A stretch of 64,000 nt of DNA from Octopus vulgaris. Taxonomy: Eukaryota. Shown here piece by piece: positions 9,475 to 26,563 of the stretch. Each line of letters starts with the position of its first letter. Position 1 is the first letter of the stretch. The stretch spans positions 170,624,001-170,688,000 of the forward strand of contig OX597817.1 of assembly GCA_951406725.2 (NCBI GenBank). The letters are read 5' to 3'. A program made the translations under genes and the position numbers. The notes beneath the pieces were generated by a model. That model did not search any database. It was not told the origin of the DNA and saw only the letters and a program-made list of their open reading frames with translations.

Positions 9475-9750
9475 TACTCTTTTCCTCTTTTACTTGTGTC
9501 AGTCATTTGACTGTGGCCATGCTGGAGCACCGCCTTTAGTCGAGCAAATCAACCCCAGGACTTATTCTTTGTAAGCCTAGTACTTATTCTATCGGTCTCT
9601 TTTGCTGAACCGCTAAGTTACGGAGACATAAACACACCAGCATCGGTTGTCAAGCAATGTTGGGGGAACAAGCACAGACATACAAACATACAGACACACA
9701 CATACATACATACATGCATACATACATACATACATACATACATACATTCA

Positions 9751-9802
<52 letters not shown>

Positions 9803-23316: not shown

Positions 23317-23810
23317 ATTTGGCTCAAAAGCAAATAGCAAGGCCATGTAGGGGGACATGGAGTTAAGTACAGGGTGGTGTTCATGTAAAGAGATCAGGCC
23401 ACTTGAGGTCCAGGGAGGCTTTGAACAAAGCGGTCGTCGGCATCTTCACCATCTCGTCTGGCAGCTTGTTCCACGGATCCGCAACCCGGACGGAGAAAGC
23501 TCCTCTCCTTCGATTGAGATGAAATCGTCGCAGGTAGAGCTTTTCGGAATGACCCCGCAGCCGACGCTCCGGAGCAGGAGTGAAGAACAGCTCTTTCGAG
23601 AGGTTACACTTTCCTCTTATGATGTTGTGGGCGAGAATGAGATCACCACGGCGGCGGCGTTTTTCAAGAGAATAAAGGTTCACCAGCATGACATAGAGTG
23701 GTAGGAATATGGCTGCTGTGAGCATTCCGAATGACCGTCGAATCAAAAACAGAATTCCGCGCGCTTTGTTGGCAGCATGGACGCACTGGGCTGAAGGCGA
23801 AAAGGAGGAA
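23286..23810 (-). mobile_element. CR1-group LINE 3' end with (TAAC)n tail
   Basis: ORF ..LYSLEKRRRRGDLILAHNII..RLRGHSEKL..FSVRVADPWNKLP..FKASLD; (GTTA)n at 23286-23316. Confidence 0.9.
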
Positions 23811-24434
23811 TATATATATACAATGGGCTTCTTTCAGTTTCTATCAAATCCACTCACAAGGCTATAGTAGAAAATACTTGCCCAAGGTGCCATGCAGTGG
23901 AACTGAACTTGGGACCATGTGATGTATATGTTATATTTGAATGCTGTTGACAGTGGCTCCAAAGTTTTAACCAGGTAAGCCATAATTGGACTGTGATGCA
24001 TTAGAGTTATTTCTGCCTTACTGTCAAGAACATTCTTGCATAAGAATAATACATTTGTACTCAAAAGTACAGAATAACACATCAGATTAATATAATATTG
24101 CTTTTTATTATAACTGAACATAAAAACAGACATCAATATTTATATGTGTTTTATCCAGAATTGCAATTTCCAACCTGACATTAATTCTTCTTAAGATGAC
24201 AATGAGTGATATGAAAAAGATATAGCTGATATTTCAACAGGTAAAACATCTGTATAAATAAGATAATTTGGGACATTGGGTGCTACGTAGTAATGCCAGC
24301 ACCAGCACTGAGTCCTTGATTGGCTGAATGCAGCCCCCTGCACCAGTCTTAGAATGCACACCTCTGTTCTATTAGTCATAACCGTTTCATAAATACAGCC
24401 TGAAGTAATAATTTTTAACAGGTGAATATACAGT

Positions 24435-25125: not shown

Positions 25126-26228
25126 TGCCTCACAGCTTTACTTGCACTTATAGTTGTACAATGTTGTACCAATACTAAGGCAGTAAGCTGGCAGAAACGT
25201 TAGCATGCTGGGTGAAATGCTTAGCGATATTTCGTCTGTCTTTACGTTCTGAGTTCAAATTCTGCTGAGGTCAACTTTGCCTTTCATCCTTTCAGGGTCG
25301 ATAAATTAAGTACCAGTTGCGTAGTGAGGTTGATCTAATCCATTATCCCCCTCCCCACAAAAATTTTGGGCCTTGTGCCTAGAGTAGAGAAGAATATTGT
25401 ATTAATAGTTCAAGTAATATTATTTGGGGTTTTTTTACAGCTAAAGAATTGTTCCTATGCTTTTTATTACCGAGTTTATATGATTTTGGTTGGATTAAGA
25501 AGTTTTGTCTAAGTTGTAAGGAATTTACATGGTTTCTCTAGATTTTAGTGCCCAAGGCAATCATGTTTGGTTAGTAAAATGCTCAGCCCTGTGATAATGT
25601 GATGTAGGTATTGGATGTGGAACATCTCTGGTGGCTGGTTGGAAATGAGGTCAGTAGGATGTTGTTGGATATGTAATGATAATTTACATTAAAACTGATG
25701 CACAGGTGAGATGAGAGAGAAAAAGTGGCTAAGTATAAAAAAAGGTTGTTAATGTATGAAGCATTATTGGTAAACAAATTTTATGCTGCATTATAGTCAT
25801 AAATGGGATATAAAATGTAGACCTGTGAAAGCTTTAGGACAGTGAGGTAAATATGATACACCTGTTAGATATATAATGTTAGTCTATACAAAAGTATGAT
25901 CTTTTAGATGTATAATGATATTCTATATGAAAGCAGAAATATGGAGAAATAGAGAGAGAGAGAGAGAGCAACAGAGAGACAGAGACAGATAGATAAACTG
26001 ACAGAGAGACAAACTGACAGAGAGAGAGATAAAGAGAAAAAGAGGGAATGGTTTGATATCAGAGACACACCTATGTGCTCAATGAAAATGTGATGAATTA
26101 ATAGAATCCTTAACACACCTGAAGAAATTGCTTTTCAGCATTTGTTTTTGGTCTTTATGTTCTGAGTTCAAATCTCATCCATGTCAACTTTACCACTTAT
26201 ACTTTCAAGAAAAGATAAAATAAATTAC

Positions 26229-26563
26229 GGAGATGTACTTGCATAGCAAGTGACCTGATCTGAGATCATGTGCTGAAACAAAAACAATTGCAGCGTGTAA
26301 GGTGTTTATAAACCATTTAAAAAGAAACACACACACAAAAAAAAAACAAAAAACGTTAGATTCACTTCAACATTTAACTTTAATTTGTGTCAAAATATTT
26401 TTGTCACTTTGAAATCGTGACAAAATTTTGTCAGTGAACAGGTTGTGGTTTCAAAGCGACAAAAATATTTTGACATAAATTAAATTTAAATGTTGAAGTG
26501 AATCTAATGGTTTTTGTGTGTGTGTTTTTTAAATGGCTTATAAACACCTTCCACGCTGCAATT
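26229..26563. mobile_element. Fold-back cassette with G3:C8 hammerhead-like motif
   Basis: Arms about 26286-26421 / 26442-26563; 26429-26475 reads TGTCA-GTGAACA-gGTTGT(ggtttcaaa)GCGAC-AAAA-ATAT-TT-TGACA. Confidence 0.75.

Follow-up and report, generated by a model that had tools for sequence, protein, structure and literature searches.

A fold-back in Octopus vulgaris, probably a short head-to-head insertion of Penelope-like pseudo-LTRs, and the likely compensatory G3:C8 swap in the hammerhead motif of its family

The DNA analyzed here (the window) is a stretch of 64,000 nucleotides of the Octopus vulgaris genome (GenBank assembly GCA_951406725.2, contig OX597817.1, positions 170,624,001 to 170,688,000 of the forward strand). 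It contains a fold-back whose two arms are truncated copies of one repeat unit, and this fold-back almost certainly derives from a Penelope-like retroelement (PLE). A first-pass annotation had started the element at 26229; comparison of the arms showed that the tailed end actually begins at 26225. The parts of the insertion, read as PLE pseudo-LTR (pLTR) copies, are as follows.

26225..26563, no strand assigned: entire insertion, a fold-back made of two truncated PLE pseudo-LTR copies placed head to head, from arm comparison.
26225..26421, minus strand: tailed arm, unit positions 30-205, which begins at stem II, lacks the GUGAACA half of the core and has A at position 12.
26225..26285, minus strand: one-sided 61-nt tail (the PLE "tail"), which continues into the ORF in full-length copies.
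26422..26563, plus strand: short arm, unit positions 8-144, which stops at the short end point and holds the only complete hammerhead motif.
26429..26475, plus strand: minimal type I hammerhead motif with G3:C8, predicted to be cut after U17 (26470).
26434..26440, plus strand: swapped core GUGAACA, with G3 at 26434 and C8 at 26439.
26533..26562, plus strand: codons 1-10 of the PLE ORF (MAYKHLPRCN), in frame with the RT-EN ORF of full-length copies.

Read from the sequence, the 5' side of the motif consists of TGTCA (26429-33), GTGAACA (26434-40) and an extra G (26441) after A9, which carries no number and is added here to the otherwise correct letters of the first-pass annotation. Stem II is formed by GTTGT/GCGAC (26442-46/26456-60; 5 pairs including two G-U) with G10.1-C11.1, and the 3' side consists of AATATT (26464-69), which gives a palindromic AAUAUU helix III, followed by U17 (26470) and TGACA (26471-75). 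Position 12, G in the hammerhead core, reads A at 26461, and it is A in both window arms. The fold-back is genuine, as had been proposed: its arms (26286-26414 and 26449-26563) pair, with a one-sided extension reaching 26225, and the hairpin of the 335 nt from 26229 to 26563 has a free energy of -160.3 kcal/mol (z = -18.65; 0/100 shuffles equally stable). Stems I and II had a computed probability of 0.0 in fold-backs, including that of the window, and of 0.02-0.03 in the right window arm alone. With A in place of G12 and the motif locked up in the hairpin, the window copy is predicted to be a dead hammerhead, an inert fossil.

A minimal-hammerhead descriptor with position 12 left free, composed after the motif was known, found this single site in the 64-kb window. 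Rfam gave no hammerhead on the window copy, either at the gathering score or at E<=10; sub-threshold matches to miRNA hairpins were accounted for by the fold-back. That a CUGANGA search misses the motif, as had been claimed, is true by definition, but the miss by Rfam is not specific to the swap, since the minimal helix III and G12A would lower the score too. A TSD of the window copy was looked for and none was resolved. Elsewhere in the window, positions 9692-9775 matched the PLE but proved to be a microsatellite, and 23381-23833 on the minus strand contains a 150-aa frame that we take to resemble the C-terminal end of a LINE reverse transcriptase. The idea that TGACAAAA is a transposase-binding repeat was dropped, as 7 occurrences in the window against 4.99 expected represent no enrichment.

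Searching the genome (2.8 Gb) returned 4523 candidates, 40 of which were scored; a family anchor had at least 3792 matches there. The family layout is GUGAACA-G-stem II-GAAA-AUAU-UU-stem I. A pattern that leaves the eight core letters open matched exactly at 1443 places; in the first 100 of these listed copies, counted by eye, G3 was present in 98, C8 in 96 and C3 in none, and GTGAACAG occurred in 83, in line with the GTGAACA core that the first-pass annotation expected of the family. The 3:8 pair is thus Watson-Crick, G:C where the consensus has C:G. Across young and old subfamilies U4, G5, A6 and A9, G12-A13-A14, A15.1-U16.1 and H17 were kept, while loop II changed.

Leaving both neighboring CpGs free gave 3036 matches, of which 2838 had an intact G12 and, with it, the anticipated GAAA after stem II. 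G12A was found in 198 of the 3036 copies, C11.1T at the same CpG in 435 and G>A at the next (stem) CpG in 317, so that G12A was 1.6- to 2.2-fold rarer than the neighboring CpG transitions. We regard this deficit as a hint of selection only, because the copies are not independent and sequence context may differ; context, A-run slippage or subfamily structure may each have produced it. The earlier attribution of G12A in the window to CpG decay fits its being one of several CpG transitions among the copies, but since both window arms carry the change, plain independent decay is not the only reading: a mutant source RNA may have been copied, or the arms homogenized later. Several other copy pairs also have G12A in both arms, which suggests that a dead ribozyme may not block copying. 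The same two rare changes were common to both arms in three pairs (G000:C2:206066333/206066434, C3:126549632/126549744 and C7:101309963/101310077), which suggests either a single template or gene conversion from one arm to the other.

Many copies of the family are not fold-backs. An upstream-extended pattern gave 722 matches, many of them in head-to-head pairs 0.07-5 kb apart, and between such pairs lay 5'-truncated ORF pieces with a reverse transcriptase (RT), a Cys linker and a GIY-YIG-like C terminus. The full-length element L117 comprises an inverted truncated copy, a pLTR, a broken ORF and a second, direct pLTR, the two pLTRs lying 4261 bp apart; the window arms are 80-85% identical to both. 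In another copy, L120, a 971-aa frame is open; by eye, it contains a YVDD-type RT, a Cys linker between RT and endonuclease (EN) of the form C-QSN-C-AV-C and a YIGET GIY-YIG-like end. The ATG of the ORF lies inside the repeat arm, and the tail extends into the ORF in three copies. In general, the family shows a single RT + GIY-YIG ORF, pseudo-LTRs overlapping the ORF start and a one-sided tail, as PLEs do. Compared with the window type, the young subfamily has kept the stems and core but has a different loop II; in the older copies L125-L127, the loop II type of the window is joined to the same ORF.

The PLE protein (P0001) had 144 homologues, the best of them unnamed or "hypothetical," one named "Reverse transcriptase domain-containing" and one with PF01541; a Pfam scan of the protein gave 0 matches, and a PDB sequence search gave no name. 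Contigs of four presumed-RNA runs cover the pLTR and the ORF start, and no GT-AG joint was found among them; such contigs do not reveal strand, start, end or cleavage and were left out of the evidence. At L117:3697-3722, the 25 nt before the unit resemble a branch point plus splice acceptor, or an initiator, and short copies stop sharply there. L061, with two copies 4.27 kb apart, was rejected as a full-length element, as no PLE ORF lies between them and the arrangement is a local duplication. Between family copies at L089:3482-6788 (plus strand) lies what we take to be a different, Poseidon-like PLE ORF in two frames.

To describe the short copies, 26 insertions were picked by an anchor downstream of the core (30 matches, four pairs of which were merged). 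Fold-backs made up 19 of the 26 and single units the other 7, and 17 of the 19 fold-backs combined one short with one tailed arm. Arms ended at unit positions 135-150 in 20 of 45 cases and at 201-205 in 24 of 45; they started at positions 1-6 in 25 of 45 and at the predicted cut site in only 1 of 45. None of the 26 insertions continued into upstream element sequence. TSDs measured 9-14 nt where resolved, and most flanks were (TA)n. Junctions varied between insertions, apart from one that was common to 5 of the 26; these five were probably copied together and are therefore not independent. The identical junction with shared flanks was seen in L140, L141, L151, L153 and L154, and also in L017-L019 and L030, where the fold-back is probably carried as a passenger in another repeat. 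In L038, L042 and L047, an older variant of the unit is embedded in a shared inverted-repeat element that is larger, at several hundred bases. An extra G at the 5' end, in a cap-derived reading, fits few copies. These data establish that the window copy belongs to the family, that the family is tied to an RT + GIY-YIG ORF and which core letters it carries, and they show that its copies have two fixed 3' end points and a sharply defined 5' boundary.

Two other accounts of these short units were considered. Long terminal inverted arms, small size and several palindromes with TGACAAAA at the center speak for a MITE, a class II DNA element whose hammerhead likeness would come from internal palindromes; the first-pass annotation had remarked that the family looks like a palindromic MITE. 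The arms are unequal, however, the tail is one-sided, the centers vary, 7 of the 26 insertions are single units and the TSDs are of variable length; the direct continuity with the RT + GIY-YIG ORF refutes a MITE origin, to which we assign next to no probability. The carrier is instead an inverted pLTR pair of a PLE. It is harder to set aside, if still rather improbable, that the short units form a separate, SINE-like, non-autonomous family produced by short master loci, rather than arising incidentally from the 5' end of the autonomous mRNA. The lack of upstream element sequence in all 26 insertions would fit such a family, as would the older loop II type of most short copies and private variants often common to both arms. 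Yet the same loop II type occurs in the older autonomous copies L125-L127, and since junctions differ among insertions, the fold-back itself is not the replicating unit. Moreover, this account bears solely on where the RNA came from, and it leaves the hammerhead reading intact.

Returning to the autonomous element as the source, we infer that the short units were copied, with two primings, from the 5' end of element RNA that had not been cut; since copy ends do not accumulate at the cut site, uncut RNA is the likely template. The element mRNA would begin within the pLTR, near unit position 1. The element protein would nick AT-rich DNA, and reverse transcription of the uncut RNA would have two internal starting points, some 145 and 205 nt away from its 5' end. 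The two primed strands would yield one short and one tailed copy, which would then be joined head to head at variable, microhomology-guided points. For the family motif, in turn, weak self-cleavage is predicted, either in dimeric RNA or with a protein assisting. Inverted truncated pLTRs with a one-sided tail are described as typical of PLEs (Craig 2021, PMC8557442), and in vitro work on a PLE tied the tail to two internal RT start sites, with both DNA strands extended and uncut RNA as the template (Frangieh 2024, PMC11167929).

The origin of the swapped pair can be approached from relatives. The nearest sister family in the same genome shares 58% amino acid identity and has C3:G8 at the same place. 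It is young, with ORFs of up to about 1310 aa and copies 99% identical (L161-L190), and its hammerhead (L166:58-64 and the 4652 region) combines C3:G8 with C9 and an additional G, and its helix III palindrome is imperfect. The sister pLTR motif gave 50 matches over 30 loci, upstream of the homologous ORF start plus the tail end, and stems I and II of the two families differ by paired changes. In an RT-EN tree of 13 rows (midpoint root, without named reference proteins), the G3:C8 family and the C3:G8 sister grouped at 100/100, with the other motif-bearing rows outside. Of 25 metagenomic relatives, 5 carried a sense-strand motif that follows the ORF match at 98-398 nt, 3 with C3:G8 and 2 with U3:A8; as a control, the same 81 kb gave 1 match in 10 shuffles and 0 in reversed sequences. 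The remaining 20 of the 25 loci showed no motif; most are short contigs, and L193 and L198 had none despite more than 1 kb behind the ORF. Pair counts in a motif-only alignment of eight motifs showed double-sided changes in 11 of 14 pairs, a partly circular score, since the motifs had been selected for the 3:8 pair and stems and two rows are the G3:C8 family itself.

With a C3:G8 sister and relatives that have C3:G8 or U3:A8, parsimony makes G3:C8 the derived state: C3:G8 would be ancestral, and the octopus lineage would have swapped both letters while keeping the pair. From these comparisons with the sister family and the metagenomic relatives, we consider it likely that G3:C8 is a compensatory swap; the hammerhead-type motif with G3:C8 proposed in the first-pass annotation is supported. 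As G3:C8 occurs in one lineage, it counts as one event, however many copies there are. Unrelated minimal motifs with C3:G8 and U3:A8 also turn up in flanking sequence; the genome contains a minimal hammerhead family with U3:A8 (L105:1959 and L109:2299, plus strand; L078:205, minus strand), as well as C3:G8 minimal hammerheads of other families and one motif with a long stem II (L049:2926 and L102:3247, minus strand; L173:34 and 644 and L034:794, plus strand).

Whether the motif cleaves is a separate matter. In intact single units, stems I and II had a computed probability of 0.81-1.0, and the fold of the L117 motif had z = -3.66. Helix III is weak: the AAUAUU duplex amounts to -0.2 kcal/mol, a 10-nt palindrome that absorbs A13/A14 competes with it (-3.8), and helix III within a monomer costs 5.4 kcal/mol, which is in line with cleavage as a dimer or assisted by protein. 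G8C alone is reported to lower the hammerhead rate about 10^5-fold, with C3G partly restoring it, and changes at G12 to lower it strongly (PMC8495972); in a PLE hammerhead, too, C3G/G8C restored cleavage in part (Frangieh 2024, PMC11167929). Given these published effects, the family motif is plausibly a ribozyme, though a slow one, whereas the window copy would be dead. We think measurable cleavage by the family motif somewhat favored.

It could also be that the PLE origin is right and the G3:C8 motif is nonetheless inactive, or nearly so, and kept as an RNA structure, a protein-binding site or a promoter element. The absence of a copy-end pile-up at the cut site would then be expected, as would the weak helix III, and published results point the same way: mutants of the anole PLE ribozyme had no effect on insertion in vitro, RNA reads ending at the cut site were absent for that element in the data described (PMC11167929), the double swap restores activity only partly (PMC11167929, PMC8495972), and minimal hammerheads (min-HHRs) are slow already (PMC4209133). 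On the other hand, loop II differs between young and old subfamilies whereas the other core letters do not, drift would hardly arrive at two changes that recreate precisely the 3:8 pair, and G12A shows its modest deficit. We hold an inactive motif to be unlikely. Taken together, the fold-back is probably a short head-to-head PLE pseudo-LTR insertion of a family whose hammerhead carries a likely compensatory swap and is predicted to self-cleave weakly, with the window copy itself predicted dead. A fuller reading is offered tentatively: the natural G3:C8 hammerhead would be the functional ribozyme of an octopus PLE family that was recently active and has thousands of copies, the C3:G8 sister would be its natural control, and the fold-backs would document in the genome that both strands were primed, at two internal positions of uncut PLE mRNA.

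PLE hammerheads, their layout, natural U3:A8 and rescue by engineered C3G/G8C have been published; the case described here adds copy number, intact autonomous copies and a C3:G8 sister family. No natural G3:C8 hammerhead and no octopus PLE hammerhead were found in the literature searched; the survey of Lünse et al., which lay outside that search, may report the former. The word "ribozyme" does not occur in the main text of the 2026 O. vulgaris repeat paper (PMC13282606). If the motif cleaves, the set of natural 3:8 pairs would be completed with C8, whose single change is strongly damaging, and a retroelement could be said to fix an attenuated ribozyme, the sister families permitting a direct comparison of rates. 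Hammerhead surveys based on CUGANGA would then undercount PLE ribozymes; since the swap is invisible to such descriptors, some "hammerhead-less" PLE clades may hide cores of this kind. The short copies, present in their thousands, stop at either of two fixed 3' positions and have a sharp 5' end that lies beyond the cut site; they lend genomic support to the recent in vitro model of PLE insertion from uncut RNA. A note of caution also follows, in that MITE-like calls in octopus can be retroelement ends.

Among known systems, the metazoan PLE min-HHRs of Cervera and de la Peña (2014, PMC4209133) resemble the octopus motif in their pLTR location, the extra nucleotide between 9 and 10.1, G10.1-C11.1, a short helix I and a palindromic helix III, and opposite-strand motif pairs 100-700 bp apart are described there. 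They differ in the 3:8 pair, which is C3-G8 or U3-A8 there and G3:C8 in the octopus family; G3 appears in 0 of the 56 rows of their Fig. S3, from which cephalopods are absent. Natural 3:8 covariation is also known from the core variants of Perreault (2011, PMC3088659), whose core-variant section reports U3-A8 and leaves G3-C8 unmentioned.

PAc, the Anolis Poseidon PLE (Frangieh 2024, PMC11167929), shares the tail bounded by two internal RT start sites, the extension of both DNA strands, AT-rich targets and an uncut-RNA template. Its hammerhead is C3:G8, however, G3:C8 being an engineered mutant with partial rescue. The PAc ORF starts in stem II, whereas that of the octopus family begins further on, at a G3-to-ATG distance of 92 nt; the octopus tail measures about 61 nt, compared with 30-40 in PAc. 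The octopus protein has a Cys linker, which Penelope/Poseidon lack. With the EN+ PLEs of the Neptune/Nematis type (Craig 2021, PMC8557442), the family shares RT, Cys-rich linker and C-terminal GIY-YIG, inverted 5'-truncated copies, a one-sided tail and (TA)n neighbors; this likeness is one of layout, as our tree contains no named reference proteins. Finally, the non-LTR retrozymes (Li 2026, 10.64898/2026.07.22.740005) are likewise non-coding, hammerhead-bearing derivatives of PLE pLTRs. They form head-to-tail tandems, in contrast to the octopus units, which are dispersed singly or head to head, the sole tandem seen among them being the 221-bp one at L062.
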